DNA from: a virus
Taxonomy: Duplodnaviria; Caudoviricetes
Length of the DNA stretch: 59,814 bases
Reading direction: 5' to 3' (one strand)
IMG/VR virus record: IMGVR_UViG_3300032304_000176
Span: 1-59,814 of that record
The notes under the pieces: generated by a model
What the model saw: only the letters and a program-made list of their open reading frames with translations
Databases searched by the model: none
Told to the model about the DNA's origin: nothing
Program-made: the position numbers and the translations under genes
In this document: positions 142 to 34,771 of the stretch, one piece after another
How the letters are laid out: the number at the start of each line of letters is the position of its first letter
Position numbering within the stretch: the stretch's first letter is position 1

Positions 142-260
142 TGATTGCGCTCCCCGTCATGGGGGTCATGTACATGGATATGAATAATGCAACAGTAGCG
201 GCAATGGAAGAAATACGCAAAATGCGTGAACTACGCGCAAAAATATTATTGGGGGAATAA
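60..260 (+). CDS. small single-TM membrane protein
   Basis: ORF 51..260, likely ATG at 60. TM segment WSLLIAVIALCFVLVIALPVMGVM. Stop overlaps the next start (TAATG). Confidence 0.65.
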   Translation: MADDTSKDERDVPWSLLIAVIALCFVLVIALPVMGVMYMDMNNATVAAMEEIRKMRELRAKILLGE

Positions 261-679
261 TGGGTGCGGTAGATAGGTATAAAAAATGGTCTGAAGATAA
301 CCCAAAAACCAAACTTGCCGCTGATCTAACGCCCGGTATTGGTGCTGCTACTTCTGTTGGAGATTCCGCTGTTGCGTTTAATGAAGGTAGGCATGGAGAT
401 GCCGCATTAGAACTTCTTGGTGTTGTACCCGGAGTTAAAGCATTACCTATGATAAATAAAGCATCTCGTGCGGCTCAAAAAATTAATAAAGCAAGGCAAG
501 CTGCTACAACAGCAGACAAAACAAGTGACACATTGCAGTATGTCGAAGGACGTAAGTCGGAGGATGATAAACCAGATTGGGCTACAGGCGGTATGAAAAA
601 AGGTGGCAAAGTACGTACAGCCTCACAACGTGCGGATGGTATAGCCCAGCGGGGCAAAACAAAAGGAAGGATTAAATAA
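260..679 (+). CDS. hypothetical protein with C-terminal MKKGG / ADGIAQRGKTKG motifs
   Basis: 139-aa ORF coupled to both neighbours. C-terminal motifs are shared with 50820..51179. Confidence 0.75.
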   Translation: MGAVDRYKKWSEDNPKTKLAADLTPGIGAATSVGDSAVAFNEGRHGDAALELLGVVPGVKALPMINKASRAAQKINKARQAATTADKTSDTLQYVEGRKSEDDKPDWATGGMKKGGKVRTASQRADGIAQRGKTKGRIK

Positions 680-1194
680 TGCTGACACTACTTTCAACAC
701 TTGTTAGTTTTTTGATGGGTGGCTTGCCCAAGATATTAGATTTATTTCAAGACAAGTCTGATAAGTCGCACGAACTTGCTCTTGCTAGGATGCAAACTGA
801 ACGGGAACTACAACTAGCCGCCGCAGGATACGTTGCCCAACAACAGATTGAAGCTATCAAGCTTGATGAGATAAAGACGCAGACAGCTTCTGCGGAGAAA
901 GTCTCGTTAATCGACGCACAATCTGCGGAGATGAGTGCCATATATGCCCACGACACAAGTCTTAATGAAGGTACATCCCAGTGGATGAAAGACTTCCGCG
1001 CTTCGGTGCGTCCTGTAATTACTTACGGATTCTTTTTTCTACTGGTAGGCATTGACGGCGTGTTGGCGTACAAAGGCTTGACTAGCGGCGTGGAATTTAA
1101 TGCGTTGGCTGACCAGCTATGGGATAACGAGACTCAAGCATTGTTTGCAAGCATCATAGCGTTCCATTTCGGCGGTAGGGCGTTTGGAAAATGA
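679..1194 (+). CDS. putative holin (3-TM type)
   Basis: N-terminal hydrophobic helix, a coiled coil, then RASVRPVITY plus two TM segments ending FHFGGR. Directly upstream of the lysozyme. Confidence 0.65.
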   Translation: MLTLLSTLVSFLMGGLPKILDLFQDKSDKSHELALARMQTERELQLAAAGYVAQQQIEAIKLDEIKTQTASAEKVSLIDAQSAEMSAIYAHDTSLNEGTSQWMKDFRASVRPVITYGFFFLLVGIDGVLAYKGLTSGVEFNALADQLWDNETQALFASIIAFHFGGRAFGK

Positions 1195-1670
1195 TAAGCC
1201 TCAAGGCTTTAAAGATGATCTCTCATCACGAGGGAGTAAGGAATAAACCTTACCGGTGCCCAGCTAGGCTGTGGACGGTTGGCGTGGGGCATGTGATTGA
1301 CCCTAACCACGCAAGAGTACCGTTTGAACAGCGCAGTTATCTGGAAATTCCGGATGGCTGGAACCGCACATTTACAATGGAAGAAGTAGATGCCATACTT
1401 GCAAAAGACCTTGAGAGGTTTGAACGTGGAGTTCTTAAATATTGTCCTACTGCTGGCTCTAATCAAGGCTGGCTGGACAGTCTAGTCAGTTTTAGCTTCA
1501 ACGTGGGTTTGGGTACATTGCAACGCAGCACACTGCGACAAAAGCATAACCGGGGCGACTACCAAGGCGCAGCCGACGAATTTTTAAAATATTGTAAAGC
1601 TGGTGGTAAAGTCCTAAGAGGTCTTGAGAACCGCCGCAAAGACGAACGTTCAATCTATTTAGGGAACTAA
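1191..1670 (+). CDS. endolysin, GH24 phage lysozyme
   Basis: HEG-x7-C-x5-TVGVGH catalytic region, SFSFNVG and C-terminal GLENRRKDE. Confidence 0.92.
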   Translation: MISLKALKMISHHEGVRNKPYRCPARLWTVGVGHVIDPNHARVPFEQRSYLEIPDGWNRTFTMEEVDAILAKDLERFERGVLKYCPTAGSNQGWLDSLVSFSFNVGLGTLQRSTLRQKHNRGDYQGAADEFLKYCKAGGKVLRGLENRRKDERSIYLGN

Positions 1671-2662: not shown

Positions 2663-4804
2663 ATGCCCTTGCAGAAATTACAGTTTCGCCCCGGAGTTAA
2701 CCGCGAAGGTACGACGCTTGCCAATGAAGGTGGTTGGTTTGAGTGCGACAAGGTGCGGTTTCGTTCTGGCTACCCTGAAAAAATTGGTGGCTGGGCTGCA
2801 ATTACTTACAGTACCTTTTTGGGCACGTGCCGATCATTGTGGAATTGGGTCACGCTAAAGGGCTACAACTTACTTGGCGTTGGCACACATCTAAAGTTCT
2901 ATGTAGAAAACGGCGGTACCTACTACGACATCACGCCTATTGGAGCAACAACCAACCCAATGGGTAACAACCCATTTGCTACAGCCTATTCAACGCTTAA
3001 CGGTGCTATTACTGCCACTGCCACAACAATTACGCTAACCAGCACTTCAACGTTCCCAACAATTGGTGGGCGTATAAAAATTGATTCAGAAGAAATGATC
3101 TATGCCGCCGTATCGGGCAGCACATTAACAGGTTTAACTCGTGGCGTTAACGGCACTACAGCGGCTACACATAGTACTGGGGCGGCAGTTGGCTGCGCTA
3201 CGTTAATTGTTACTGATGCTTCTCACGTGGTTGAGAATAATAGCTTTGTGGACTATAGCAACGTAACTACATTTAATGTGTTTACTTCCACAATAATGAA
3301 CACCAATGCGTCTACGCATGTACCAAGTTTCCAAATGCAGTACCTGTCTGGCACAACGTACGTAATCACCGTAACAGACCTAAGCACAGGGCAGTACGTA
3401 TACTCTACAGCAGCTACTACAGGCGGCGGCGCATCGGTTAAAGCTGAGTATGAGCTTGATGCGGGTTTAGAGATTTACTCTTTGGGTACAGGTTGGGGCG
3501 CAGGGCCTTGGTCACGCGGCACATGGGGTTCAGGCTACACCGGAGCGTCTACGGGCATTGGCTTGCAGTTACGTTTATGGAGCCAAGCTAACTTTGGTGA
3601 GATTCTTTTGTTCTCGCCTCGTGGTGGAGCTATTTACTACTGGGCACCGGGTGCTGCTGGTACGCCTGACTTTGCTACACGCGGCGCACTTGTTACGGGT
3701 TCTGAAGTTCCAGTACAAACTAATCAGGTTATGGTCTCGGATGCTACGCGTATTTGTATAGCGTTTGGCGCTACGTCGTATTCGTTTGATTCCCCTGCCA
3801 GTACGTTTGACCCGATGTTAATTCGTTGGTCGGTACAAGAAGATTACACCGATTGGTTGCCAGCAGTTACAAACCAAGCAGGTAGCTATAGGTTGTCGCA
3901 CGGCTCATTCATTGTTGGGGCGCTCCAGACTCGTCAAGAGATTTTGGTGTGGACAGATTCTACGATCTATTCTATGCAGTATCTGGGGCCTCCTTACGTT
4001 TGGGGCTTTAACTTACTGTCGGATAACATCTCCCTCATTTCGCCTAACGCTATGGCAACTGCCAACGGCGTTACTTACTGGATGGGTACAGATAAGTTCT
4101 ACATTTATTCAGGTCGTGTCGAGACGCTGCCATGTTCGCTGCGTCAGTATGTGTTTGACGATATTAATAGAGATCAATCGTTCCAATGCTTTGCTGGCAC
4201 AAACGAAGGCTATAGCGAAGTGTGGTGGTTTTATTGCTCAAAAGACTCCGATGCTGTTGGCCGGTATGTAATCTTTAACTACCTTGACCGCGTTTGGTAT
4301 TACGGCACGATGGATCGTTCTGCTTGGTTAGATAGCCCGTTACGTGAATTCCCACAGGCGGCTACGTTGAATAATCTTATTGTGTTTCACGAAGCAGCGG
4401 TTGATGACGGCACTACTAACCCACCTGCACCTATTGAGTCGTTTATTCAGTCGTCTGACTTTGATATTGGTGACGGGCACAACTACGGGTTTGTATGGCA
4501 GATCGTGCCAGATATTACATTTGACGGGTCAGATACAGCGTCGCCCGGCTTCCCATCGGTTAACTTCACGGTGCGCCCACGGCAAAATCCCGGTGCTAAC
4601 TATGGTATAGCGGACAACCCAGTGGTGGCATCAACGGTATCTTACGCGTCGCGTAATACATACAACGTACAACAATTTACCCAGTTAGTGAACACTCGCA
4701 TACGCGGCAGACAGATGGCGTTTAAGATTCAGTGCGATACGTTAGGCACTCAGTGGCAGTTAGGTACACCGCGAATTAATGTTAGACCTGACGGGAGACG
4801 CTAA
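2663..4804 (+). CDS. tail nozzle / packaged-DNA stabilization protein (P22 gp10 / T7 gp12-like)
   Basis: 713 aa, beta-rich with W/Y-rich blades, in the typical position before the ejection genes. Confidence 0.65.
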   Translation: MPLQKLQFRPGVNREGTTLANEGGWFECDKVRFRSGYPEKIGGWAAITYSTFLGTCRSLWNWVTLKGYNLLGVGTHLKFYVENGGTYYDITPIGATTNPMGNNPFATAYSTLNGAITATATTITLTSTSTFPTIGGRIKIDSEEMIYAAVSGSTLTGLTRGVNGTTAATHSTGAAVGCATLIVTDASHVVENNSFVDYSNVTTFNVFTSTIMNTNASTHVPSFQMQYLSGTTYVITVTDLSTGQYVYSTAATTGGGASVKAEYELDAGLEIYSLGTGWGAGPWSRGTWGSGYTGASTGIGLQLRLWSQANFGEILLFSPRGGAIYYWAPGAAGTPDFATRGALVTGSEVPVQTNQVMVSDATRICIAFGATSYSFDSPASTFDPMLIRWSVQEDYTDWLPAVTNQAGSYRLSHGSFIVGALQTRQEILVWTDSTIYSMQYLGPPYVWGFNLLSDNISLISPNAMATANGVTYWMGTDKFYIYSGRVETLPCSLRQYVFDDINRDQSFQCFAGTNEGYSEVWWFYCSKDSDAVGRYVIFNYLDRVWYYGTMDRSAWLDSPLREFPQAATLNNLIVFHEAAVDDGTTNPPAPIESFIQSSDFDIGDGHNYGFVWQIVPDITFDGSDTASPGFPSVNFTVRPRQNPGANYGIADNPVVASTVSYASRNTYNVQQFTQLVNTRIRGRQMAFKIQCDTLGTQWQLGTPRINVRPDGRR

Positions 4805-5133
4805 TGTCTACGGGTACAACCAAATTTCCTACGTTGCCGCTGGCTCCAATTCAGTACGACCAGAAGTATCAGGATCAGCTAAACACTATTTTGCGTCTGT
4901 ATTTCTCGCAACTAGACAACCCCGGCCCCAGTGCAGGTTCCACACGGCGCGTACTAAGCCCCATAAGTGGTATAGAAGAAGTTATCTCTGGGTACAACTT
5001 TAGCGAACTTAATGCGGTTACTGGAGCACGTCGTATAAGTTTGCCAACACAAGCTGACTTAGCCGCAGGTAGACTGCGTACTGGAGATTTGTACTACGAC
5101 ACCACAACATATATCTTAAAGATATCACCATGA
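4804..5133 (+). CDS. virion-associated hypothetical protein
   Basis: Translationally coupled ORF in the tail operon. Confidence 0.6.
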   Translation: MSTGTTKFPTLPLAPIQYDQKYQDQLNTILRLYFSQLDNPGPSAGSTRRVLSPISGIEEVISGYNFSELNAVTGARRISLPTQADLAAGRLRTGDLYYDTTTYILKISP

Positions 5134-5507
5134 CCCCCGAAGATCGTGCCCTGATTATGGTGTATGAGTCTGTAAAGCATCGCTTAACAATTGGGCTGAC
5201 TGAGTATCTAGAGGCAGTAAAAGATTGGACTGTTATACCCCTGACCGAATCAGGGCGCGTTATAGGTGGTGTGTTAGTAAAAGATAACGAGATTCATGTA
5301 GGATATGGGGTTAAGCCAATTGGGTGTATTCGGGCGTATATTCGGGCCATACTCGGCGGTGTAATAGATAAATACGGCTACGCCGTAACTCAAGTACGTG
5401 AAGAAAACCAAGCTGGACTACGGTTCTGCGAAAGGTTAGGATTTGTCAAATTAAGCGCACAAAACGGTACAATACTGCTACGTTGCGACAGGAGTAATTA
5501 CGCATGA
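5130..5507 (+). CDS. GNAT-fold acetyltransferase-like protein
   Basis: VREENQAGLRFCERLGF matches the GNAT C-terminal motif. Confidence 0.7.
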   Translation: MTPEDRALIMVYESVKHRLTIGLTEYLEAVKDWTVIPLTESGRVIGGVLVKDNEIHVGYGVKPIGCIRAYIRAILGGVIDKYGYAVTQVREENQAGLRFCERLGFVKLSAQNGTILLRCDRSNYA

Positions 5508-7456
5508 GAATACCAAATAAATTCAATGGTTATAGCCGTGATGGCATTCGTCTATACAACGACCCAGCTACGGCGGCTGCTATTGCGGCGGCGGGTACTA
5601 GTACTGGCACTATGGCGGGTACAACTTTGTTAGCAAGTGGGGCTGCTGCGGGAACTACCGCAACTATTGCTAGTAATATGGCACTTGCCAGTGGCATGAA
5701 TCTTGGGTCTAATCTCTACAACGCTGGCAGTGGCCTTAATAGTTTACTGAATAACGGAGTAGATCAAGCTGCGCTCCTTCCGGGCCAAATTGCCGCAACA
5801 ACTCCACCGGTTCCTACTGGGATAGCGTCTGGGTTTAATCCTGATCCTAGCAGTGCTGCTGAAAGGTATTTAGCGGGTTTACAAACTCCTACGCCACCAG
5901 CCTTTACGCCGGGTCAAGCGACGATGAACACTAACATATTAGGTTCCCCTGCGTTAAACCCTACGGCACAAATTACACCAACGGTTAATGCTGCTCCAGC
6001 GATGCGCAACGCTGCGGAAGTGTATGAGGCAGCGCGGCCTGTTTACCCACAAGGTATTGAAAGCTTAGCGCAAGGTCGTGGGTTTCCTTCGGTAGAAAGC
6101 ATAACTGCGGCTCCTGCTCCTGTTTCTGCTGCAACTGCTCCTGTTACTGAAGTGATAGCTGATCGAGCTACTAGTCCACTTCTTGAGCCTATTATTTCTG
6201 AACCCGGCACTTCTCCTGTAAAGTTAATTGAAAACCCCGTAGAAGGAAATGTTGTTACGATGGGCAGCAATCCAGCCGTTAAACCCGGCATGACGGGTAA
6301 TGCATACGACGATGCAAAAACATTATTTGGTAAACCTAATTGGCAGAACATAAAAGACTTTGCTTCTGAGCATCCTTATTTAACAGCAGGAGCTGGGTTA
6401 GCTGCATATCAACTACTAAAGCCTAAAGCTCCTGTAGAGAAAAAAGCCCCGGCACAAATTCGCCCATATACAAATACACGTACAGTTAGCCCAACGGCTA
6501 GTTACTACACTCCATACAGCGGCGCATCTACTGCCGAACGTAACTACTTTACTGGTGGGTTGCAAGCACTTCCTATATATGAAGCAGCAGAAGGTGGCTT
6601 AACAAGTCTGGCAGTAGGTGGCCCAATTGAAACCATGTCGGCTATGAACGCTGTTGGTGAGAACTTAAACTACCCGCAATCGCAATACCAGACCGACATT
6701 TATAGCAACCCCAACGTGCAACGTCCACAAATAACGAACATGATTGCGCCGTCAGGCGATGTGCCGGTTGACCAATACACAGGCGAGCAGAAGTTTGCTG
6801 ATGGTGGAGACACAGGCGGATACAAGTATTCTTACGATCCGAAGACACAGCAATTTACGCAATTGTCGGCACCGCAGCTAGCATCTGATATGTCCGACAC
6901 AGTAATAAATGGTTTAAACAGCACAAGTTACGGCAAACAAACCACACCAGTTGTAGCACCAAAACCGTTCACACCTGTAACTACAGGCGGTATAACTACG
7001 CCAGCAGTGCAATCAATGCCAGCCCCTATGCAGCAAGCCGCAGCGCCCATAGATATTCCAGCGTACCAAACTCCTGAGCAGCAATTAGGATTGGGCGGGT
7101 TTTACGACTACATGAACCAGCAACTAGGCGGTATGCGTGGGTATCAAGGTTTCGCAGAGGGTGGGCTTTCACATTTAGGAGGGTACTCAGATGGTGGACG
7201 ATTGCTCCGTGGGCCGGGTGATGGTGTCAGTGATTCTATCCCTGCTTCTATTGGTGACCGTCAGCCCGCTCGTCTTGCTGATGGCGAATTCGTTGTACCC
7301 GCCCGGATTGTGTCAGAAATTGGCAATGGCTCCACCGAAGCTGGTGCTCGTAAGTTGTATGCGATGATGGAACGTATACAGAACGCCCGTAAAAAGTCTG
7401 TAGGTAAAGGTAAAGTAGCTGTTAATAGTAAAGCAGATAAATACCTACCCGCATGA
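5504..7456 (+). CDS. internal virion / ejection protein with xxxGG motifs and C-terminal GPGDGVSDSIPA domain
   Basis: 650 aa, A/P/T/G-rich low complexity, with C-terminal RGPGDGVSDSIPA...LADGEFVVPA. Confidence 0.65.
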   Translation: MRIPNKFNGYSRDGIRLYNDPATAAAIAAAGTSTGTMAGTTLLASGAAAGTTATIASNMALASGMNLGSNLYNAGSGLNSLLNNGVDQAALLPGQIAATTPPVPTGIASGFNPDPSSAAERYLAGLQTPTPPAFTPGQATMNTNILGSPALNPTAQITPTVNAAPAMRNAAEVYEAARPVYPQGIESLAQGRGFPSVESITAAPAPVSAATAPVTEVIADRATSPLLEPIISEPGTSPVKLIENPVEGNVVTMGSNPAVKPGMTGNAYDDAKTLFGKPNWQNIKDFASEHPYLTAGAGLAAYQLLKPKAPVEKKAPAQIRPYTNTRTVSPTASYYTPYSGASTAERNYFTGGLQALPIYEAAEGGLTSLAVGGPIETMSAMNAVGENLNYPQSQYQTDIYSNPNVQRPQITNMIAPSGDVPVDQYTGEQKFADGGDTGGYKYSYDPKTQQFTQLSAPQLASDMSDTVINGLNSTSYGKQTTPVVAPKPFTPVTTGGITTPAVQSMPAPMQQAAAPIDIPAYQTPEQQLGLGGFYDYMNQQLGGMRGYQGFAEGGLSHLGGYSDGGRLLRGPGDGVSDSIPASIGDRQPARLADGEFVVPARIVSEIGNGSTEAGARKLYAMMERIQNARKKSVGKGKVAVNSKADKYLPA

Positions 7457-7884
7457 TTGAAGTCTCTATGGTTCCTACTCAGCATATAGATACGTGCTGG
7501 GAGCAGATAAAACCCTACATGGAGAAAGCCGCGAAGTACACGTATGGTAGATTTACGGCAGATGATATATACGATTCTATAGTAGAGCATGACTACCACC
7601 TGTGGGTAGCGTTTGATGAAGAAATAATATTGGGTGCCGTGGTTACGCAGTTCATGGTGTATCCCAAACGAAGAACACTTAGCATGACTTTTTGTGGGGG
7701 TACTCATCTACATGAGTGGAAAGGCCCGATGCTTGCATTACTACAAAGGTTTGCTGCGGATATGAATTGCGACGGGATTGAGGCTACGGCACGTAAAGGC
7801 TGGGCTAAAATTTTTAAATCTGATGGATATAAAGAACGCTGGGTAACTTTTGAGTTGCCAGTAAAAGGAGCAGAAAATGGGTAA
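7453..7884 (+). CDS. GNAT-like protein (phage ejection-module type)
   Basis: GAVVTQF..YP...LSMTFCGG...GIEATARKGWAKIF pattern, located between ejection genes. Confidence 0.55.
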   Translation: MIEVSMVPTQHIDTCWEQIKPYMEKAAKYTYGRFTADDIYDSIVEHDYHLWVAFDEEIILGAVVTQFMVYPKRRTLSMTFCGGTHLHEWKGPMLALLQRFAADMNCDGIEATARKGWAKIFKSDGYKERWVTFELPVKGAENG

Positions 7885-8839
7885 AGGCGGCGGCGGAGGC
7901 CAACAACCTACTAGTCAAAGTGTAACGCAGAGCAACATTCCTGAATACGCGAGGCCGTATGCTGAGCGCATGCTGGGTAAAGCAGAAGCGTTAACAGAGA
8001 CTCCATACCAAGCATATGGCGGTGAGCGCATTGCTGGGTTTAATAACCTACAGAATCGAGCATTCCAAGAAGCTGCTAATCTTGGGCCATCGCAGCAGTT
8101 AGGTATTGGTACACAGTTAGCCGGTATGTCTGGTCTTGGCTCGTTGCAAGCAGGGCAGAACTACCAGAACATGGCAACTAATCCGTACGCTATGCAGTCG
8201 TACATGTCGCCGTATATACAAAATGCGTTAGCCCCTCAGATGCAGGAAGCAGCGCGTCAGTCAGATATTCAAGGACAGCAAAACGCTGGGCAAGCAGCTA
8301 GAGCGGGTGCCTTTGGTGGGTCACGGTTTGGTCTACAAGAAGCGGAACGCCAACGCAATCTGGCTACTATGCAGAATTCGATTTACGGTACAGGGATGCA
8401 GAATGCGTTCCAGAACGCCCAGCAAGCGCAGCAGTTTGGCGCAACATTAGGTTTGCAAGGTATGGGACAAGGTCTGCAAGCTGCTAATACGTTGGGGCAG
8501 TTAGGTCAGACTCAGTTTGGTCAGCAACAAGCGGCTATGCAAGCTCGTGCAGCGGCAGGTCAACAACAGCAAGATTTGGAACAACAGAAGTTGGGTCAGC
8601 AGTACCAAGACTTTCTTACTCAGCGTGGCTACCCACAGCAGCAGTTGTCGTACATGTCGGATATGCTTCGTGGACTTCCGCTTTCTGGGCAAACGCAACA
8701 ACAATACACGGCACCTGCTTCTATGCTGGCAACCGCTGGTGGTCTAGGCGCTATGTATCTCGGCGCACAAAGAGCGTTCGGTAAAAAAGAAGGTGGGTTA
8801 ATGGGCATGGCTCTAGATAACATGGTGAATGGTAAATAA
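7877..8839 (+). CDS. DNA ejection / pilot protein
   Basis: MGKGGGGG start, Q/A/G-rich helical body, GAFGGSR motif and a hydrophobic C-terminal segment. Confidence 0.7.
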   Translation: MGKGGGGGQQPTSQSVTQSNIPEYARPYAERMLGKAEALTETPYQAYGGERIAGFNNLQNRAFQEAANLGPSQQLGIGTQLAGMSGLGSLQAGQNYQNMATNPYAMQSYMSPYIQNALAPQMQEAARQSDIQGQQNAGQAARAGAFGGSRFGLQEAERQRNLATMQNSIYGTGMQNAFQNAQQAQQFGATLGLQGMGQGLQAANTLGQLGQTQFGQQQAAMQARAAAGQQQQDLEQQKLGQQYQDFLTQRGYPQQQLSYMSDMLRGLPLSGQTQQQYTAPASMLATAGGLGAMYLGAQRAFGKKEGGLMGMALDNMVNGK

Positions 8840-8841
8840 TC

Positions 8842-10593
8842 ATGATAGACGACATCAATGAAATTAGAGCACTTGCTACTAAGTACAGCGTACAGCAGCT
8901 TAGAAATTTAGCTGATTTAAAACTTCTTGACCCTATTAAAGCGGTCATGGCTGGCAATATGATTAATCATATTCAAAAGCAAAACGCAAAACCGCCGTCT
9001 ACTTCCGTTGCACAAGATTTGTTAGGTATACAGCAGCAAATGCCTATGCAAGGCCAGCAACAGCCGCAAATGCCTCCGCAGGAAATGCCACAACAAGCTC
9101 CACCGCAAATGGCGCAAGCCCCTGCGGGTATAGAAGGTCTCCCTGCCGGTGATGTAGGTAACTACGCTGGTGGTGGCATTGTTGCATTTGATGATGGTGG
9201 GCGCGTGCCGGGATATGCTGGGGCCGACGGTAGTGTGACTACTTCATCCCCTGTTGGGCGTGGTTTATCTAGATTTTTTGGTGGTAGAACTTATAGCCCA
9301 GACGTAACACAACAATTAAAAGCGCTTGATGAACAGTACCAAGCTTTAGCAGCTAGGGATCGTCAACTTAACGGTATGTTTGGGTTTCAACAACAAACTC
9401 CTGCGCAACAAGCAGAAGCCGCTAAAGTTAAACAGCAAATGCAAGAGGTTTTTCAACAATCACAGTCACTTAAAAATACCCGGGCTGATCCTGCGGCGGC
9501 TCCAGCAGTAGACCAATCAGCCGCAGAAACTGCGCGGCTACAAAGACAAGATACTATATTAAACCCAATTGGTGGAGATAACATCCCACCAGCACCCCTT
9601 CCGCCTCCAAGGCGAGATGCTCCACCCCCTACGCTTACTAGTGGCAAACCAATAACACCACCCACACTTGGTGAGTTTGCACCCATAAAAATTGCTGGTG
9701 CTGATCGTCCACCTGCGGCAACAGTGAGTGATCTTAGAACTATTAAAAAAACGCGGGAAGAGCAAGAAGAAGCGGAGGGCTTTAATAAGAATTTAACAGC
9801 GGAGCAGATTAAGCGAATAGAAGACAAACAAAAAAAGTTAGAAGACTTTGAAAGCCGTGCTGGTGGTGAAGCTTTGTTTAATTTTGGTCTTGGGTTACTT
9901 GGCGCTAAAGAAGGAGAAGAAGCCCAAAGAGCGGGAGAATCAGGAAAAGCTTCTCTTGAAAAATACACAGCAGCGCGTAAAGATTTACGTTTAGAAAAAG
10001 AAAAACTTGACGAACGCGCTGAAGCTTTGCGTCTTGCCGAAAACCAAGCTAGGAAAACTAATAGCGCCGCTGACATTGCTGAGCTTAAGAGACAGCAAGA
10101 TAAATTTGACGCACAAAAAATGGAGTTCTATAAATCTGAAAATGATTTATTAAAAACTGGGGCACAAGTAGGTGCACAAGTGCGGAACACGGATGTCCAA
10201 GCAGCAACAAGTATGTACACCGCACAGCTTTCTGCGCAGACTCAAAGAGATGTTGCTAGACTAAGTGCGGAAACTCAACGGTGGGTAGCTAGTCGTCCAC
10301 CAGCAGAAATATTAGCTATTGAAGAAGTTGCTAGACGTACTGGCAAACCATTTGAACAAGCTATGAAAGATTTTTATGGGGCACGTGCCGGTGCGCGTAA
10401 TATGTACACCCGTGAAGAAGCTATGAGAGACGCTCGTAAGAATTTGGAAGCCCAAGCTATCGTAAACCCAACAGAAGCGCAGATGCAAGCTGAAATAAAC
10501 AAACTCATGCGTATTCACGGTGGCGATAGTGGTGGCGGTGGGACTCTTCAGCAAGGGGCTAACGGTAGTTTTAATTACGTACCTAGACAGTAA
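8842..10593 (+). CDS. internal virion / ejection protein
   Basis: 583 aa with Q/P-rich and coiled-coil regions and YAGGG/FDDGG motifs. Confidence 0.6.
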   Translation: MIDDINEIRALATKYSVQQLRNLADLKLLDPIKAVMAGNMINHIQKQNAKPPSTSVAQDLLGIQQQMPMQGQQQPQMPPQEMPQQAPPQMAQAPAGIEGLPAGDVGNYAGGGIVAFDDGGRVPGYAGADGSVTTSSPVGRGLSRFFGGRTYSPDVTQQLKALDEQYQALAARDRQLNGMFGFQQQTPAQQAEAAKVKQQMQEVFQQSQSLKNTRADPAAAPAVDQSAAETARLQRQDTILNPIGGDNIPPAPLPPPRRDAPPPTLTSGKPITPPTLGEFAPIKIAGADRPPAATVSDLRTIKKTREEQEEAEGFNKNLTAEQIKRIEDKQKKLEDFESRAGGEALFNFGLGLLGAKEGEEAQRAGESGKASLEKYTAARKDLRLEKEKLDERAEALRLAENQARKTNSAADIAELKRQQDKFDAQKMEFYKSENDLLKTGAQVGAQVRNTDVQAATSMYTAQLSAQTQRDVARLSAETQRWVASRPPAEILAIEEVARRTGKPFEQAMKDFYGARAGARNMYTREEAMRDARKNLEAQAIVNPTEAQMQAEINKLMRIHGGDSGGGGTLQQGANGSFNYVPRQ

Positions 10594-10601
10594 GGATAAG
10601 C

Positions 10602-13600
10602 ATGCCTAGCGTAAATGTGCCCGGCGTTGGGGTTGTTAATTTTCCTGACACTATGTCACAGCAAGATATTATTGCTGCAATTGAAAGGGACATCCTTCCG
10701 CAAGTCCAAGAAAAGCCAAAGCCTAAAACCGGGTTCTTTGCCAACATAGGCGCGGGTATTGAAAGCGCAAAAGGCGATATTGGTTCTATTGGCGCAGCTT
10801 TAGGGGTTTCCGGCGCAGAAGAATACTCTAGGAAGCAACAGCAACTTGCTAGTGAAAAAGCCACGATCCCAGAGTTCTCCGATATAGCTGGTGTTAAAGA
10901 CGCTTACAATTATGCTGCTGGGTTAGCTGGTAGATCATTGCCGTACATGGTAGCGCCTATAGCTGCGGCAGTTTCGGCTCCTGCTGGTATTGCTGCCGCC
11001 GCCGCTGGTACCGCTGCTGGAGCTATTCAATTTTTTGGCACTGACTTAACTCGTCAATTACAAGAAGGTAAAACCGCCGAAACTTTAGATATTGCTAGTG
11101 CCGCCGCAGCAGCACCGTTTCAAGCTGCGTTAGATACAGTTGGTTTCCGTTACATACCCGGACTACGCAAAATATTTGGTCAAGCTGGCGTTAAGATGAG
11201 CGACGATGCTCTTCGTGACGTTATGAAAACTCGCATGACCGAAAACCTTGCGGGTAAGGTAGTCAACTATGGCACTAAGGCAGTTCAAACAGCCGGTGTA
11301 GAAGGTTTTACTGAAGCCGGACAACAAGTCTTAGAACGTGCGCAAGCTGGACTTAGCATCACTGACCCAGAGGCACGGAAAGAATACTTTGATAGTTTTA
11401 TTGGTGGCGCTGTTCTTGGTGGTGGCCTTTCTGTGCCCGGTACTGCAATAGAACGTTCAAGCCAACAAGGCCAGTATGAACAGTTACTGCGCAAAGATGC
11501 TGCCGCTGCGGCTGCTGCAAAACAACCTGTTACAGAAACAACAGAAGAAGCGACAGGGTTTAAACCTCTTTCTGCACTCCCAGACACTTACGGGGAAGCT
11601 GTGCAGGAGGTGGAGCGCCTAAAGCAAGAGACGCAAACTGCGGAAATAAAAGCTCGCATTGCTGAGCTAGAAGCTTATAAGCAACGCCTACTGACCGAAG
11701 ATATTGAAGGGTTACGCCGCGACCCTTATGCAAGACCTAAGTCGCTTGAAGACCAGATTAAAAACCAATCGGCGGTGCAGGGCGAGTTCCGTGAAACAAC
11801 TGCTAATTTAAAAGATTACTTTACCCCAGAGCCACAAAAAGATATTCCAGTTGTATATCCCGATGGTAAAAAAGGCGTAATTACGCCAGAACAACAACGC
11901 GCAAGCCGTGAAGGCCAAGCAGAAGAAGTTCCAAAAGAAGCGCCTACGGTGTTGGATGCCACTACGCTTGATGCAACAGGGCTACCTAAACAATCCGGTA
12001 TATACAAACAACTTCTAGGTAAAGACTTAACTGACCTTGAGGGTCTTGATGCAGTAATGCAGATTGTTGAACGCGCCAAGACTAACAACAGCTTGAGCAC
12101 CGCAACTAAACAGGCGTTGGACTCTCTTGCTACAAATGCGTTTAATATATACGGCAAGCAAGCTGAGATGTTTGGCCCACGTGGTGGAGTGCTTGAGCCT
12201 ATAAAGCCTGAAAAAGTAACTGCGGTTCAGCAAAAGATTGATGAGGTTATTAAAGGTAAAGACCTTACTGATCCTGCACAAGTTGAAGAGATTCGTGCGA
12301 TCCTTACCGACTATGCTAACGCGCCAACTCGTAGTGCGGAAGCTATTGCTGAACTTACCAAGTTTTTAGATACCCTTCCGTCTTCAACCCCGGAGGCTAC
12401 TGATGTCCTTAAACCTACAGAATCTATCGGCGCAACAAGTGAGTCTAGCCCTCCAGTGGTTGACGAACGTGGAGAAGCAGCCCCCCAAGGAATTACAGCA
12501 TCTGACACTAACGGATTGGACAGTACTGGAGCGGCTGTTGAACAACCTAATGTTGGAGAAGCAGCACAGCCAACTGCATTAACGGAAGCTCCTATTGCGC
12601 CAACTACACCGGCTAGGACAATCCCACCAATCGCGCCACCACCCGTACCAAATGCGCCAATTGCGCCAAATGCACCAGCTCGAACAATTGAACCAACCAC
12701 ACCTACTGGTACACCAAATGCACCTACTGCGCCAAATGTACCAGCTCGAACAATTGAACCCACTACACCCACCGGTACGCCAAATGCGCCTACTGCGCCA
12801 AACGTACCACCAGCTACACAAAATGCTGGCGTACCTGCACTAGTAGAACCGCCTCCTCAAGGCAGGGTAAGTCGTAATGACGCTATAACTCAATTAATGG
12901 CTAGTGGCCTTAAGCGTTCGGATGCTACAAAATTTGTAAACGACGTGGCGGATACTTACGATGGCACTGTTGCGCTTGAAGATTTAAGTAATGTTATTGA
13001 AGGTGATGTACGGGAGGTGCCGGAAGCAGGTGCTGTTGCTAAAGGCCAAACGCAAGGTAAAGGACGCGCTAGGGCGGCTGCTCTTGAAGACTCAAGTAAT
13101 GTTATTGAAGGTCAGGTTCGCGTTATTGATGAAGGCACAATCGCCCCTGCTGTTTTACAACTCTCATCTCCTGAGCAACAGAAACTTGCTGAGCATTACG
13201 GGGAGCCAGTAAACAGTCCAGCGTTCCTTGAAAAACTTCGCAAAGATATTTCCGACTTTGCTACTAAAGGCGCACAAGCAGTTGATAAGGCTATTCGCAA
13301 CATTATCCGCAAGCTTAACGCTGCGGTGCTGGCTGCTGCCGTTATCATGAACCCGAACTATATGAGTGCGCCGGTTCCAGTAGCGATCCCAAAAACGGTT
13401 ACTACGATTGAGCAAGTAAAAGCAACTGTTCCATCAAAGGTATTTGAGTCGTTGTCTCCTGCTGGACGGGAAGCGTTCTCCATTATTTTCCCTTCTATTC
13501 AAGCTGACTTAAAAGCTAAGAACAAACTATTCTTGTTGGTTGATAAGCCAAACGCCCGTCTGGCGGTGTTTACTCCAGATGGCGAACCAATATTGGATAA

Positions 13601-16600
13601 GAAAGTTTTGCTGGGTCTTCAAGTAAAAGACTTTTATGTAGGCAATACTGAAAACCCAATTAACCGCATTACTCCGGCAGGTGGGTATATCGTTAAGCTG
13701 CGTGATGCGGCGCGAGGGATTACTGAAGAGGGTGGCAACGAAGCAAAAACGGCTGGTGGGTACGATTTTGGTAAAGTATTTGTGCTGGACAAAGCCGCGC
13801 CTGATGGCTCCTATTCCGTTACACTGTTCCATTCCGTATGGACAAAAGAAAAAGATGCCAAACAGCGACTCGCTGCGTTAAAGAAAGAAGGCGCAGAGGA
13901 TTCACGGTATTCGTTTGGTTGCGTCAACGTTGATAAAGACTCGTACAAATACCTGTTGGATGAGTACGGTCAGCAGATGAACGGTGCAACGATGTTTATT
14001 GTACCGGATACCCCCGGCGCTCTGATGGACTTCATCAACGGTAAAGCTGTTACCAAAGGTGATCTAAGAAGAATGGCTATCCAACCAAAAGTTGAGAAAG
14101 TCACCAAGACCGTACCCGGCACTCCTTCTACAACGCCAGAACGTGCCCAACAGGTAGCTGCGCGTAAAGAAGAAGGTTTAACAGAACCAGAACGTCGTAT
14201 AAAAGGGTTGTACAGACAAGGCGAAGCACCTGCTCCGGGCGAAGGCATGAACCAAGCCCAAGTGCAAACCATCGTAGACACTATGTCTAAAAATTGGGAG
14301 AACGCCCCCAAGATTAATGTTGTTCAGGATATTCAAGAACTCCCACAAGCTATTTACCAACAAATGGTAAAAGACGATGCGCTTGATGCGCCGGGTGTAT
14401 ACGATCCTAATACTAAAATTGTGCACTTAATTTCGGACAATATTAAAAACCCGAAAGAGGCTATGCTTACTCTAGCCCACGAAGCATTGGGTCACTATGG
14501 GTTGCAGTCTATTTTAGGACACACCTATAACAAAGTAATGGACGATATCTATGCAGGTAACGCTAAAGTACGTGAACTTGCGGATGTAAAAATTAAAAAA
14601 GGATTAGACCAGCGCACCGCTGTAGAAGAAGTCTTAGCTGAAATGGCTGAGAAAGATGTAAGTAATAGTGCCGTGCAGCGAGTAATAAACGCCATTAGGC
14701 AGTGGCTCCGAAAAATGGGAGTTCCATTTGGTACCGTATCAGACACCGAGATTCGTGCGCTACTAGCTAACGCTAATAGGTTTGTGCATGGCGGTAAATT
14801 CCGTGCCGGTGAAGAAGCCTTTGGCAACAAGCCACTATACAAAGAAGGCGCGTTCCAAAAATGGTTTGGTAATTCGGTTGTGCGTAATGAAAACGGCACA
14901 CCTAAAGTTATGTACCACGGTACGTCACAAGATATTCATGAGTTCCGTCCTAAGCAAGCTGGTGCAATATTTGTAACTGATAACCCTAATTTTGCTCATT
15001 CCTTTGCAGAGATGTCTGAAGGGTACATGATGGCTCACGCCAAGCAAAATATGTCCGAAGCAGAGTTGAATGATATACGGGCACGGGCACAAAAAATTGC
15101 GGATAAAGAAGGTACGTCTTTTGCAGATGAGCTTTTCACGTTGCTTAAAGAGTCGTTGCCATCCAATGCCAATATCATGCCGGTCTATGTTAGTGCGCAG
15201 AACCCGTTTGACTTTTCAAATCCAGAACATTTAGCGGCAATACGTGAACATATAGACGAAGCGGTTAAAGGCAAATTAACTGTTAATAAACGCCCACAAG
15301 AAACTTTATACACAGCGAATCGAATTAGCCAAGGTAGTTGGGACACAATAGAATCCAAAGAAGTTCAAGCTGCTATTAAAGCGGCTGGTTTTGATGGGTT
15401 TTACGTCATGGAAGGCGGTAGGAAAAACCTTGCCGTCTACGAACCTACACAAATTAAATCCATATTCAACAAGGGTACCTACGATCCTGCCGACAAGCGC
15501 ATTTTGTACCGCAGTCGGGAAGAAGAATTAACCCCAGCAGGTGAAGAAGCCGCTGCGCTGAACAACCGCATGAAGGGTGCAGGTAACCCTAATCCAACCG
15601 ACCCTGATACTGTACTGAAGAAGCTATTAGGCGTTGTGCAACCACGTGAAGGTGAGCCGTCGCTTGGCACTAAGTTTAGGCATGCGGTTGTAGACGCTAG
15701 TGCCCCGGCTACTGAAAAAATGCAAGCTAAGTTCAACAATACCCTCGTTGATTCGCTGGGAGAAGTTCGCGGCGATTTAGCACAGATTCAAGCACAAGAC
15801 ACCGCCGCATTTGCCGAAGGTGTAATGGAGCATGGCGGCATCCGTATAGGTAAAGATAATCTTGTTGAAATAGTTGACCGCAACGCAACTATGGGTAAGG
15901 TGTTCGACATCATGACCAAGCTAGGCGACCGTCTAGGCTCGCTTAAGACTGCAATGCAGTTAGGCCACAACGCGTTTATTGCGCAACGTGCTAAAGAGCT
16001 TAACGCACACAACGCTAAGATTGCTCAAGACATTGTCGCAGCAGAAGCTAAAGGCAACAAGAAAGCTGTTGCAAAACTAAGAGACCAACTAATTACCCAT
16101 TATGTAACAGATGAAGAGATAGTTGCCGCTGACGAGGCTATGCAAAAGTTCCCTGAATTAAAGGAAGCTTTCAAAACGTTTACTGAATACAAGAATGGTT
16201 TAATAGACTTCTTGGTGCAGACCGGACGCATCAGCGAAGCCAAAGCTACTGATTGGAAAGAGGCAGCGGGTTACGTGCCTTGGACACGCGTTGAAGAAGT
16301 AGTCAATATATTTGATGAAAGCCCCGCTTCGTTTAAAGGTGGTGTAGGCAACATCTCTAAAGAACGTATCTTAGACCGAGAGGGTAGTCAGAAAGAGATT
16401 GCTAACGTGTTTGACAACATGATTGGTCTGACTAGCTGGGCGGTTAAAACGGGTATGAATACGTATGCTTCGCGCCGTATGGCAGAAAGCTTGCCTGATG
16501 CGTTTGAATTAAAAACAGATGATGCTATTGCCTACGCACAGAAATTTAACAAAGACAGATTAGTTTTTACTTACAAAGACGGCGAGCGTACTGCGTACCT

Positions 16601-18200
16601 ACTGGGCAGTCCGTTAGATAAGAGCGCGTTTGCTTCCAACATTGTCACGCTAGGCCCGATACTAAAAGCGTTTAGCTTTGCCCAAAGCACCTTGCGTAGC
16701 TTTATTACCCACATGCCAGCGTTTGCGCTTAGCCAGTTAATTCAGGACGGTACCTACCGTGCCATGCTGTTGTCAGGCGTTAAGCACCCGTTTAGTCTGC
16801 CAGCTAAGGTAGCTAAGAACTTCATACACGCTATGGCAGGTGAAGGTATTCCGTTAGAGCTTGCTAGGATCGGTGTGTCTGGTGTGTATGACGGCATGCC
16901 ACAACAAGCTGTAGAACGTGCACGTGTTAAGTACGGCCTAGAAGAACGTAATGGGTTTAAGAAAGCTTGGGATAAGCTAGAGAAGTTTTCACTAGCCGCC
17001 GACTTAGCGGTACGTGCTGCTATCTATGAGCAAACTATCAACGAAACTAAATCCGCTGAGATGCCGGAAGGTGATCGTAGGCTGGCTCTGTATCGCGCTA
17101 AGGAATATATTAACTTTAAACGTGCTGGTGATAGCACGGTCATTGGTACGCTACGCCACATGGTGCCGTTCTTAAATGCGTATATACAAGGTATGGACAT
17201 CTTGGTTCGCACCATGCAGGGCAAAGGCATTTCGTTAGAAGACAAGCGCACAGCGCAAAAACTCTTCTTAGCAACTGGTCTCAAATTAGCCGCTATGTCT
17301 ACGCTCTACGCCATGCTGGTAGGGGATGATGACGATTACAAAGGGATGGAAGACTACGAACGCGATAAGAACTACATCATTCCGGGTACTGGGTTAAAGC
17401 TTCCTGTTGCCCCCGAGGTTGGGTTTATGTTCAAGGTTATCCCTGAACGTATCGTGCGCTACGTAGTTAGCCAAGGCACAGAGCGTCCACAGGATGCAAC
17501 GGCGTTCTACAAAGGGTTTAGAGATGCGTTCGTTTCTGCATATAGCGGCACTAACTTAACCCCGCAGTTGGTTAAACCAGCGGTGGAAGTTTTAACTAAC
17601 TACTCGTTCTTTACTGGCAACCCAATTGTTGGCGCAGGTATGAAGAACCTTGACCCTTCGATGCAGTTTACTGAAGGCACGTCTGAGTTAGCCAAGCTGT
17701 TTGGTATGGTAGGCATTTCACCATTAAAGGCTGATTATTTGATTCGTGGCTACACCGGCATGATGGGTGCTTTTGTATTAGACGCAACTGACGCGGTAGC
17801 TAACCCAGACCGTATGGGCAAGCCTGTATCTAAACTGCCGCAGCTAAGCACGTTTATGTATGACACCACAGGACGTGGGTACAAGTCAGAGTTCTATGCT
17901 TTCCGTGAAGCCGTTGATCAGGTAGTAGACACCGTGAACATGTTTAAGCGTGAAGGACGTACGGAAGAATTGCGCAACTACATGACTGAAGAAAACATGA
18001 AGCTGTACGCCATGAAGGGGGTGGTCAACAAAATTGAAACTCAACTATCCATCTTGCGTAGATACAGAAGCATCATTGCTAATGACCCGCAAATGCCAGC
18101 GGATTTGAAGCGTGAGAAAACGGATGAGATTTTAAAGCAGGAAAAAGAACTTCTCTTGGCGCGGAATATACCTAAGCTGCGTAATATGGCTGGGCTATAA
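10602..18200 (+). CDS. large polyvalent (ejected) protein: L,D-transpeptidase-like, zincin metallopeptidase, ADP-ribosyltransferase-like and LPD38-like regions
   Basis: 2532 aa. LVDK..TPAG..FHS..SFGCVNV (YkuD-like); AHEALGHYGL..EEVLAE (HExxxH); MYHGT..IFVTDN..ANIMPVY..GFDG (ART-PolyVal-like); C-terminal YINFKRAG..VPFLNAYIQG. Confidence 0.8.
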   Translation: MPSVNVPGVGVVNFPDTMSQQDIIAAIERDILPQVQEKPKPKTGFFANIGAGIESAKGDIGSIGAALGVSGAEEYSRKQQQLASEKATIPEFSDIAGVKDAYNYAAGLAGRSLPYMVAPIAAAVSAPAGIAAAAAGTAAGAIQFFGTDLTRQLQEGKTAETLDIASAAAAAPFQAALDTVGFRYIPGLRKIFGQAGVKMSDDALRDVMKTRMTENLAGKVVNYGTKAVQTAGVEGFTEAGQQVLERAQAGLSITDPEARKEYFDSFIGGAVLGGGLSVPGTAIERSSQQGQYEQLLRKDAAAAAAAKQPVTETTEEATGFKPLSALPDTYGEAVQEVERLKQETQTAEIKARIAELEAYKQRLLTEDIEGLRRDPYARPKSLEDQIKNQSAVQGEFRETTANLKDYFTPEPQKDIPVVYPDGKKGVITPEQQRASREGQAEEVPKEAPTVLDATTLDATGLPKQSGIYKQLLGKDLTDLEGLDAVMQIVERAKTNNSLSTATKQALDSLATNAFNIYGKQAEMFGPRGGVLEPIKPEKVTAVQQKIDEVIKGKDLTDPAQVEEIRAILTDYANAPTRSAEAIAELTKFLDTLPSSTPEATDVLKPTESIGATSESSPPVVDERGEAAPQGITASDTNGLDSTGAAVEQPNVGEAAQPTALTEAPIAPTTPARTIPPIAPPPVPNAPIAPNAPARTIEPTTPTGTPNAPTAPNVPARTIEPTTPTGTPNAPTAPNVPPATQNAGVPALVEPPPQGRVSRNDAITQLMASGLKRSDATKFVNDVADTYDGTVALEDLSNVIEGDVREVPEAGAVAKGQTQGKGRARAAALEDSSNVIEGQVRVIDEGTIAPAVLQLSSPEQQKLAEHYGEPVNSPAFLEKLRKDISDFATKGAQAVDKAIRNIIRKLNAAVLAAAVIMNPNYMSAPVPVAIPKTVTTIEQVKATVPSKVFESLSPAGREAFSIIFPSIQADLKAKNKLFLLVDKPNARLAVFTPDGEPILDKKVLLGLQVKDFYVGNTENPINRITPAGGYIVKLRDAARGITEEGGNEAKTAGGYDFGKVFVLDKAAPDGSYSVTLFHSVWTKEKDAKQRLAALKKEGAEDSRYSFGCVNVDKDSYKYLLDEYGQQMNGATMFIVPDTPGALMDFINGKAVTKGDLRRMAIQPKVEKVTKTVPGTPSTTPERAQQVAARKEEGLTEPERRIKGLYRQGEAPAPGEGMNQAQVQTIVDTMSKNWENAPKINVVQDIQELPQAIYQQMVKDDALDAPGVYDPNTKIVHLISDNIKNPKEAMLTLAHEALGHYGLQSILGHTYNKVMDDIYAGNAKVRELADVKIKKGLDQRTAVEEVLAEMAEKDVSNSAVQRVINAIRQWLRKMGVPFGTVSDTEIRALLANANRFVHGGKFRAGEEAFGNKPLYKEGAFQKWFGNSVVRNENGTPKVMYHGTSQDIHEFRPKQAGAIFVTDNPNFAHSFAEMSEGYMMAHAKQNMSEAELNDIRARAQKIADKEGTSFADELFTLLKESLPSNANIMPVYVSAQNPFDFSNPEHLAAIREHIDEAVKGKLTVNKRPQETLYTANRISQGSWDTIESKEVQAAIKAAGFDGFYVMEGGRKNLAVYEPTQIKSIFNKGTYDPADKRILYRSREEELTPAGEEAAALNNRMKGAGNPNPTDPDTVLKKLLGVVQPREGEPSLGTKFRHAVVDASAPATEKMQAKFNNTLVDSLGEVRGDLAQIQAQDTAAFAEGVMEHGGIRIGKDNLVEIVDRNATMGKVFDIMTKLGDRLGSLKTAMQLGHNAFIAQRAKELNAHNAKIAQDIVAAEAKGNKKAVAKLRDQLITHYVTDEEIVAADEAMQKFPELKEAFKTFTEYKNGLIDFLVQTGRISEAKATDWKEAAGYVPWTRVEEVVNIFDESPASFKGGVGNISKERILDREGSQKEIANVFDNMIGLTSWAVKTGMNTYASRRMAESLPDAFELKTDDAIAYAQKFNKDRLVFTYKDGERTAYLLGSPLDKSAFASNIVTLGPILKAFSFAQSTLRSFITHMPAFALSQLIQDGTYRAMLLSGVKHPFSLPAKVAKNFIHAMAGEGIPLELARIGVSGVYDGMPQQAVERARVKYGLEERNGFKKAWDKLEKFSLAADLAVRAAIYEQTINETKSAEMPEGDRRLALYRAKEYINFKRAGDSTVIGTLRHMVPFLNAYIQGMDILVRTMQGKGISLEDKRTAQKLFLATGLKLAAMSTLYAMLVGDDDDYKGMEDYERDKNYIIPGTGLKLPVAPEVGFMFKVIPERIVRYVVSQGTERPQDATAFYKGFRDAFVSAYSGTNLTPQLVKPAVEVLTNYSFFTGNPIVGAGMKNLDPSMQFTEGTSELAKLFGMVGISPLKADYLIRGYTGMMGAFVLDATDAVANPDRMGKPVSKLPQLSTFMYDTTGRGYKSEFYAFREAVDQVVDTVNMFKREGRTEELRNYMTEENMKLYAMKGVVNKIETQLSILRRYRSIIANDPQMPADLKREKTDEILKQEKELLLARNIPKLRNMAGL
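12662..12809 (+). repeat. 66-bp in-frame tandem repeat (about 2.2 copies) encoding a Pro/Thr linker
   Basis: Units start at 12662, 12728 and 12794 (partial) and encode APN(A/V)PARTIEPTTPTGTPNAPT. Confidence 0.9.
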
Positions 18201-33520: not shown

Positions 33521-33535
33521 TTTGTTTCTCCAAGT

Positions 33536-33550
33536 TTAGGTACTACCTAA
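33536..33550. promoter_or_regulatory. 15-bp palindrome copy 1
   Basis: TTAGGTACTACCTAA next to the RBS of 33520. Confidence 0.85.
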
Positions 33551-33556
33551 TTATGT

Positions 33557-34762: not shown

Positions 34763-34771
34763 ATATCCCCC

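Follow-up and report, generated by a model that had tools for sequence, protein, structure and literature searches.

The stretch of DNA analysed here (59,814 nucleotides; IMG/VR virus record IMGVR_UViG_3300032304_000176, Duplodnaviria, Caudoviricetes; CheckV completeness 95%), called the window throughout, carries past its tail genes a cassette of four consecutive genes for predicted ejection proteins (5504..7456, 7877..8839, 8842..10593 and 10602..18200), at least one of which has a match to an ejection-protein family. The analysis concerns the C-terminal region of the first of these proteins, referred to as the end module, and a group of pentapeptides close to [FYMW]-[AKSD]-x-G-G (xxxGG) that occur in this and in other late proteins: in the original prediction, made from the nucleotide sequence alone, about 16 of them had been counted in seven late proteins, and all 16 were found at the genes named. 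The order of the cassette is similar in the Caulobacter phage GB2A, and the cyanophage MinM2 shares the succession of tail protein, end-module protein, ejection protein, 583-amino-acid protein and giant protein.

The protein encoded by 5504..7456 (plus strand; 650 amino acids; motifs AAEGG, LAVGG, FADGG, FAEGG, YSDGG and, beyond those originally listed, YFTGG) consists of a long, variable Ala/Gly/Pro/Thr-rich N-terminal part, conserved middle blocks and the tape-measure-type end module, and was matched by no family of PHROGs (E<=0.001) or Pfam (E<=0.01). One conserved middle block (6545..6808, plus strand) contains YFTGG, AAEGG, LAVGG and FADGG. Among 24 relatives (43-68% identical overall) the glycines G364, G365, G372, G373, G553, G554, G564 and G565 were invariant and F431 was kept in at least 90% of the sequences; the N-terminal two thirds of the protein were barely alignable. 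Many relatives possess another conserved N-terminal block of ~55 residues (MSLH..LA..Q..GRG.D..LVHM.P.EV.GLQ..A.AHGGSL..NP.TGLPEA), which the window protein lacks; according to these alignments, N-terminal heads seem to be exchangeable on a constant C-terminal module.

The end module comprises residues 546-650 (7139..7453, plus strand; supported by a match to a tape-measure-only hidden Markov model (HMM) and by alignment). Its parts follow each other in the order FAEGG (nucleotides 7151-7165; residues 550-554), YSDGG (7184-7198; 561-565), GPGDG (7211-7225; 570-574), SDSIPA, GEFV (7283-7294) and a helix (~7331-7396), with the stretch RGPGDGVSDSIPA at nucleotides 7208-7246 and LADGEFVVPA at 7274-7303. 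The general order would be [FYM]-A-x-G-G, often doubled at a distance of ~8 residues, GPGxG-SDSIxA, GE[FY]V and helix.

Judged by its sequence, the end module is homologous to a module of siphophage tape measures. The tape-measure-only HMM, which was built from five module segments of four siphophage tape measures (none of them belonging to the window family), aligned to residues 564-613 of 5504..7456 with E=3.4e-7 as the sole significant match among the 75 window proteins, and it also matched the syntenic proteins of GB2A (3.4e-16) and MinM2 (1.1e-7). Tape-measure families of PHROGs match the end module weakly (phrog_17300, 7.1e-4); the last ~100 residues of 5504..7456 gave no match in Pfam, PHROG (E<=0.001) or NCBIfam (E<=0.1). 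With the end module of GB2A as query, 194 phage records were matched, most of them with tape-measure annotations (Mycobacterium 73, Burkholderia 28, Gordonia 19, Salmonella 9). The module is located at residues 1220-1258 of 1354 in phi1026b, at 853-880 of 971 in 9NA, at ~733-785 of 853 in lambda gpH (FATGG at 733-737, YATGG at 778-782), and occurs twice in LeBron; in all four phages [FYM]AxGG (AGGG in the first LeBron copy) stands directly before GPGxG-SDSIxA-x-LSxGE[FY]V. The statement that FAxGG followed by GPGTxxSDSIxA..GE[FY]V is found in many tape measures was therewith borne out. Since the pentapeptide and GPG..GE[FY]V are contiguous and paired one to one in the tape measures, the "tag" and the "domain" distinguished in the original prediction are to be regarded as one module. 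The second module copy of the LeBron tape measure is directly preceded by an HxH string typical of M23 peptidases; the two LeBron copies may bracket an enzymatic region.

The closest counterpart among known systems is the distal module of lambda-type tape measures (gpH ~726-785), in which the same order of [FYM]AxGG, G-x-G, GE[FY]V, I/Y-G and helix is present; it lies inside TIGR01541 (tape_meas_lam_C), a family that spans the module in lambda and phi1026b without naming it, whereas PF09718 covers residues 627-701 of lambda gpH and not the module. In contrast to the tape measures, the window module forms the very end of the protein and lacks the further 70-130 residues and the hub-binding coil; an insert of 8 residues separates its SDSIPA from the GEFV part, its pentapeptide is doubled, and the body of 5504..7456 is Ala/Gly/Pro-rich and variable instead of a coiled coil. 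The protein is probably not itself a tape measure: tail-tube and tape-measure families were not matched in the window scans, in which not all late proteins were compared with both libraries.

Among cultured phages, the cyanophages MinM2 and Pag-Yong1 and the Caulobacter phages GB2A, RW and KcrB possess an end-module protein. The podophage-type form of the module occurs very widely, a match at E<=0.001 being obtained for 10,042 representatives of 50%-identity clusters (1,793 at E<=1e-30), and a word-based search yielded at least 8000 matches (8000 of the 8000 candidates). In 150 of the 150 matches listed, from proteins of 121 to 1115 amino acids, the match reached the last or next-to-last residue. 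Bacterial genomes contributed 27 loci without clear prophage context, of which 26 were titled as metagenome-assembled genome, uncultured or bin and one belonged to a strain-labelled assembly. In the Protein Atlas all near clusters were unnamed viral proteins, the nearest named one being crAss cargo protein 1 (0.80), below the range of reliability. No description of the module was found in the open-access library searched (subscription journals were not covered). The core of the module (residues 561-620) was 87-98% identical over 79 loci, which had been chosen for their likeness to it; in five near-complete relatives the identity of the end module (82-84%) compared with 80-97% for the capsid protein and 52-94% for the terminase. 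The idea of an exceptionally conserved module that binds a universal host target was dropped, the capsid protein being equally conserved. A degree of conservation like that of the capsid protein fits a part that would touch the conserved core of the particle.

The original prediction had described the region as a compact domain, which the structure models did not confirm: AlphaFold (64-sequence alignment) gave a mean predicted local distance difference test score (pLDDT) of 59.7 for the end module, with 49-53 over the conserved core, and two helices in otherwise low-confidence coil, without any strand; the terminal helix was predicted at residues 612-630 of the protein (127-145 of the model) with moderate confidence, and the Atlas model of the whole 5504..7456 protein (pLDDT 0.44) was mostly disordered. 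A homotrimer prediction of residues 541-650 scored 0.05 against a mark of 0.42; controls were not run, and it was used neither for nor against any reading. A sequence search of the PDB with the window end module found nothing at E<=10, tape-measure chains being found only by a mixed profile (window and tape measures), according to which the tape measures of lambda, JBD30 and Douge carry the module. In these three solved tails, only the last 32, 33 and 42 tape-measure residues, respectively, are modelled (PMC12617516, PMC11445458, PMC13033339), and the module falls outside the modelled part in each case. High conservation without a predicted fold could be what is expected of a segment that folds only against a partner, or could reflect a failure of the predictor.

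Besides 5504..7456, two cassette proteins and four small basic late proteins (all on the plus strand) contain xxxGG motifs. The second ejection protein (7877..8839; 320 amino acids; phrog_4287 "DNA ejection protein", E=5.6e-15) has KKEGG near its C-terminus (nucleotides 8783-8797), with GG kept in 58 of 69 orthologs and a hydrophobic residue at position -3 of GG in only 15 of 69. The third cassette protein (8842..10593; 583 amino acids; no family) exhibits YAGGG (9163-9177) and FDDGG (9187-9201) in tandem, present in 30/30 and 24/30 orthologs; no other part of the protein is as well conserved as the motif segment (67% versus 33-41% in the neighbouring segments; 15 loci). Tandem [FYM]AxGG pairs ~8 residues apart were also observed in the relatives, as in 8842..10593 and 5504..7456 themselves. 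In the giant protein 10602..18200 the motif listing contained no strict copy.

The small basic proteins of the window have isoelectric points (pI) of 9.9-10.8. The one with the most motifs (50820..51179; 119 amino acids; pI 10.3) carries four, at nucleotides 50949-50963, 51042-51056, 51072-51086 and 51156-51170, namely FKRGG, MASGG and two copies of MKKGG; the 45 rows listed of a 69-row alignment (window protein and 68 distinct orthologs) retain FKRGG, MASGG and the terminal MK[KS]GG..C. Its N-terminal 45 residues match phrog_16759, phrog_22033 and phrog_25121, the last two labelled "virion structural protein"; in the AlphaFold model residues 1-40 (pLDDT 71-85) form a small helical domain and the blocks of residues 41-119 (45-60) are predicted to be disordered. 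A structure search of BFVD with this model returned only uncharacterised phage proteins. The protein 260..679 (139 amino acids; pI 9.9; just upstream of a phrog_6637 gene) contains WATGG and MKKGG (578-607), of which MKKGG is kept in 36/40 orthologs and WATGG in only 5/29. The seven proteins had been called otherwise unrelated, a description that does not apply to this pair: the C-terminal 31 residues of 260..679 around the motif are homologous to 50820..51179 (45% identity, BLASTP E=0.001). YKEGG of 51179..51454 (91 amino acids; pI 10.3; phrog_17747; nucleotides 51272-51286) is kept in 77/77 orthologs, and MKKGG of 52971..53156 (61 amino acids; pI 10.3; 53061-53075) retains GG in 58/59, with a hydrophobic -3 residue in 37/59.

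The well-kept copies vary within Y/F/M at -3 and mostly within A/K at -2, and most copies are kept in orthologs, the weaker cases being WATGG and the -3 residue of KKEGG and of MKKGG in 52971..53156; judging from these alignments, the motifs are under selection. That they tend to separate low-complexity segments, as originally noticed, was also seen in the alignments of the relatives of 5504..7456 and 50820..51179.

The frequency of the motif was compared with the composition of the 75 called proteins (18,390 amino acids), each of which was shuffled 2000 times. The strict pattern [FYMW][AKSD]xGG was observed 14 times versus 4.19±2.00 in the shuffles, the loose pattern [FYMW]xxGG 36 times versus 15.3±3.8, neither number being reached in any of the 2000 shuffles, and MKKGG four times versus 0.03. 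Local shuffling in windows of 15 or 30 residues (1000 each; the 34%-Gly protein 58257..59126 left out) gave 4.1 and 4.0 strict motifs, again without reaching 14 (0/1000 each), and an expectation of 0.02 for MKKGG; GG itself was not enriched (140 versus 135). As the strict motif is enriched and GG is not, the order of the residues is therefore non-random beyond the Gly content. Late genes contained 13 strict copies in 12,323 amino acids and early genes 1 in 6,067 (Fisher p=0.045), a p-value that is flattering, like the others, owing to the post hoc choice of the pattern. F/Y/M/W occupied position -3 at 26 of 97 late and 4 of 26 early GG sites (background 0.11), and no single residue at -3 was significant alone. 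Upstream of the end module in 261 relatives, whose kinship makes the count a measure of conservation and not of independent recurrence, the strict motif occurred 896 times versus 67±8 after shuffling, Y/F at -3 and A at -2 of GG being strongly favoured (4.1-, 3.1- and 2.4-fold). The original observation was thereby confirmed.

For the interpretation as a whole, prospects that we regard as about even are given to a tape-measure-like first ejection protein with one end module, related linear motifs elsewhere, and docking elements that fold on assembly. In a phage with a probably short tail, the 5504..7456 product would act as a first ejection protein akin to a tape measure; the other xxxGG copies would be related short linear motifs in Gly-rich stretches, predicted to be disordered where modelled, of the neighbouring ejection proteins and of a set of small basic late proteins. 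Having no fold of their own, the motif stretches would gain order only on meeting a partner within the assembled particle, the probable candidates being the portal or tail channel and other proteins of the cassette; cargo docked in this way would still be thin and flexible enough for threading out during infection. Some copies may also be cut, as suggested by the position of the same module at the tape-measure cut joint in long-tailed phages.

Several points weigh against this interpretation. Both the docking and its partner are putative, and the disorder argument draws on predictions of low confidence, which cannot separate a segment that folds on binding from a failure of the model. The virion location of the window proteins is predicted, and 260..679 has its place upstream of the endolysin gene and not with the structural genes. 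The link between the motifs of the small proteins and the tape-measure module is weak: past its motif, 52971..53156 aligns with the second half of the module profile without significance (E=0.14), and the K-rich context of MKKGG differs from that of FAxGG. The post hoc definition of the motif counts here as well. Concerning the homology itself, neither TIGR01541 (NCBIfam, E<=0.1) nor PF09718 (E<=10) matched 5504..7456, and hhalign of the window-family alignment with lambda gpH recovered the expected alignment only weakly (E=0.015, probability 3%).

Of the other explanations, the one by composition is hardly credible. It would take the pentapeptides as a by-product of Gly-, Lys- and Met-rich late proteins, picked after the event, and can appeal to the post hoc pattern, to the ~15 of 36 loose matches that chance alone would give, to the poor conservation of WATGG and of the hydrophobic position of KKEGG and to the lack of a significant single residue at -3; however, the local shuffles never reached the observed count, MKKGG occurs four times versus an expectation of 0.02, and the majority of copies persist in orthologs, where exchanged residues still conform to the pattern. 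Unlikely, at a somewhat better standing, is a structural role, in which [FYM]AxGGxxx would supply turns and short strands to a Gly-rich element, solenoid or beta-roll-like, that arises only in an oligomer or with bound ions, and the small basic proteins would merely share K/G-rich DNA-binding tails. The tandem pairs with a period of ~8 in many relatives, in 8842..10593 and in 5504..7456, the bias towards Y/F (-3) and A (-2), the label "calcium-binding protein" given by the depositors to the MinM2 homolog, and the high pI of the small proteins are in line with such an element. The consensus of RTX repeats is the tandem nonapeptide GGxGxDxUx, several in a row; in contrast, the units of the window, of different period and consensus, stand in runs of only two or three, which would not suffice for a solenoid, no Pfam repeat family was matched at E<=0.01, and AlphaFold did not predict any strands.

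Possible, though doubtful, is a signal for processing: during assembly, a protease would cut the ejection and small basic proteins at sites marked by the pentapeptides or by what immediately precedes them, with a host peptidase, the HExxH stretch of 10602..18200 or the DUF2201_N protein of 33557..34762 as candidate enzymes. The T5 tape measure is cut at, and that of lambda (by mass) slightly upstream of, an AxGG pentapeptide within Gly-rich sequence; the two cases offer a parallel, and the claim that some tape measures are C-terminally processed agrees with both. The lambda report describes a cut in a Gly-rich part of gpH close to its C-terminus, at an unknown site and by an unknown enzyme, that yields gpH* and a ~14 kDa gpHC, which remains in the tail bound to gpI via residues 818-849 (PMC12617516). 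The computed masses suit a cut near 710-720, 13-23 residues ahead of FATGG (733); therefore, the module would head gpHC. The one tape-measure cut mapped exactly, that of T5 pb2, is after R1127 (PMC10038345), and in the pb2 sequence R1127 stands immediately before AEGG; the cut is thus not after GG, and the likeness of T5 to the module is non-significant (best alignment of the tape-measure HMM in the 1219-residue protein at 1127-1138, domain E=1.4; hhalign of the mixed profile found nothing at the cleavage region). In JBD30, where the authors put a hypothetical cut at residue 1066 (PMC11445458), the module match (1009-1066) ends on this very residue. By analogy, a position of the module at or near the tape-measure maturation joint, and a link to processing, are plausible. 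The separation of variable low-complexity stretches by the motifs, a putative metallopeptidase domain (PF13203) and an HExxH string in the genome would suit a processing signal too. On the other hand, cutting is putative in this phage group, and for several motif copies, which stand 2-20 residues from a C-terminus (MKKGGYC, KKEGG...), hardly anything would be cut off. The only protease-like items of the window are ill suited: the DUF2201_N gene (33557..34762, minus strand; 401 amino acids; putative metallopeptidase and VWA-like domain; PF13203, 1.6e-17) belongs to the early block on the opposite strand, and the HExxH string of 10602..18200 (HEALGH) matches no peptidase family. A Pfam comparison of 72 proteins (E<=0.01 for 23 of them, E<=0.001 for 49) revealed no JAB, C39, adenain-like or other cysteine peptidase.

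Double-glycine signals are known from bacteriocin leaders with their C39 peptidases and from the adenovirus protease consensus (M/L/I)XGG-X, which serves for basic core proteins within the capsid; they likewise combine a hydrophobic residue, a spacer and Gly-Gly, the spacing in the window being one residue off the adenovirus consensus. That [FYM]-A/K-x-G-G would be a recognition element of the tape-measure maturation machinery, which spread to a set of internal proteins in this large group of uncultured short-tailed phages, is a reading that we consider quite unlikely. Very improbable is the proposal of the original prediction that the GPGDG module is a compact reader domain or the maturation protease for xxxGG-tagged cargo. 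The module is highly conserved and co-occurs with motif-bearing proteins in the genome, and a conventional prohead protease, as originally remarked, was not found in the PHROG and Pfam scans of the window; however, no fold was obtained from AlphaFold, no peptidase family (Pfam, PHROGs, NCBIfam) and no PDB sequence was matched, module and pentapeptide form one contiguous unit that is present once or twice per tape measure, and the five siphophage tape measures examined carry the module (tagged small proteins were not searched for there).

Comparison with other ejected proteins rests on analogy. The cassette resembles that of P22 (gene 14, then 7, 20 and 16), likewise a run of ejection proteins; here, each of the first two ejection genes is preceded by a small overlapping gene (5130..5507, 125 amino acids; 7453..7884, 143 amino acids, phrog_7642 of unknown function), neither of which matched a Pfam family, and unlike in P22 the cassette ends in a 2532-amino-acid polyvalent protein. 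In P22, the 20-residue leader of gp7 is trimmed by the host OpdA. The T7 proteins gp6.7 and gp7.3 are small, basic and Gly-Gly-bearing like those of the window, again by analogy only: gp6.7, for which the T7 database record notes injection from the virion, has ..SAFGGKK as its end, and gp7.3 contains QVAGG, GLAGG and ARAGG, all without the hydrophobic residue at -3.

The remaining late genes, identified by library scans (PHROGs, Pfam) on the plus strand, comprise the terminase (40630..42180), the portal (42190..44682), an HK97-type capsid protein (47524..48435), two proteins with SU10 adaptor domain (51793..52536 and 53465..54388), which are followed by tail proteins, a 713-amino-acid virion protein assigned as tail protein (2663..4804) and the endolysin (1191..1670), which is separated from 260..679 by the phrog_6637 gene (679..1194; function unknown). 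The window scans gave no match to a tail-tube, sheath or tape-measure family; in them not every late protein was compared with both libraries and a frameshift chaperone pair was not searched for; therefore, the phage is read as probably short-tailed, and the SU10-adaptor-like proteins (Pfam) point to a short tail as well. The first 40 residues of the tail protein 2663..4804 were 84% identical over 58-59 related loci and the next 200 residues 23-36%; these 40 residues are a possible candidate for the docking face of the end module.

The giant protein at the end of the cassette (10602..18200, plus strand; PF18857 LPD38, 2.2e-35; PF18760 ART-PolyVal, 2.7e-17) exhibits a stretch with weak likeness to YkuD (L,D-transpeptidase; E=0.0041, short of the Pfam cut-off) and with an SFGCVNV string, and Pro/Thr/Ala-rich near-repeats around residues 640-720. 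A GroES/Cpn10-like gene (44866..45261; phrog_3188, 1.5e-11; PF00166, 6.4e-06) is located between the portal and a scaffold-like gene (45272..46225). The late block further contains an extremely acidic, Asp/Glu-rich protein of 106 amino acids with repeated W/Y-rich acidic units and no family (48782..49102), which could be a DNA mimic or a scaffold-like piece, and a basic protein of 84 amino acids (50391..50645) that consists of a stand-alone DUF6321 domain (2e-19) with a Cys at its end; in eight PHROG families DUF6321 is the C-terminus of far longer proteins, and some DUF6321 proteins in BFVD also carry the N-terminal helical domain of 50820..51179. The protein 58257..59126 (289 amino acids, 34% glycine; PF21722 Gly_rich_2, phrog_2295) accounts for 42 of the GG pairs of the window. 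In the early block, a minus-strand trio (32642..35899) encodes a DUF3150-like protein (weak), the DUF2201_N and VWA-like protein of 401 amino acids and an AAA_5 MoxR-like ATPase of 375 amino acids.

The module described here is very widespread, occurring in addition to its podophage-type form in mycobacterial, Burkholderia, Salmonella, Pseudomonas and lambda-type tape measures, and it possesses no domain entry of its own and is missing from the models of the solved lambda, JBD30 and Douge tails. It is located next to the tape-measure maturation cut, and its definition as a unit provides a concrete place to mutate in lambda or T5. If the idea of a shared tag were true, it would imply a common handling step for the capsid-internal proteins of phages without a prohead protease; if the maturation-code reading were true, a phage-wide "double-glycine" code for the maturation or loading of tail-exiting proteins, analogous to the adenovirus GG-X, would exist. 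The module links the ejection proteins of short-tailed phages to the tape measures, and thus bears on how channels across the cell envelope are built in both kinds of phages.

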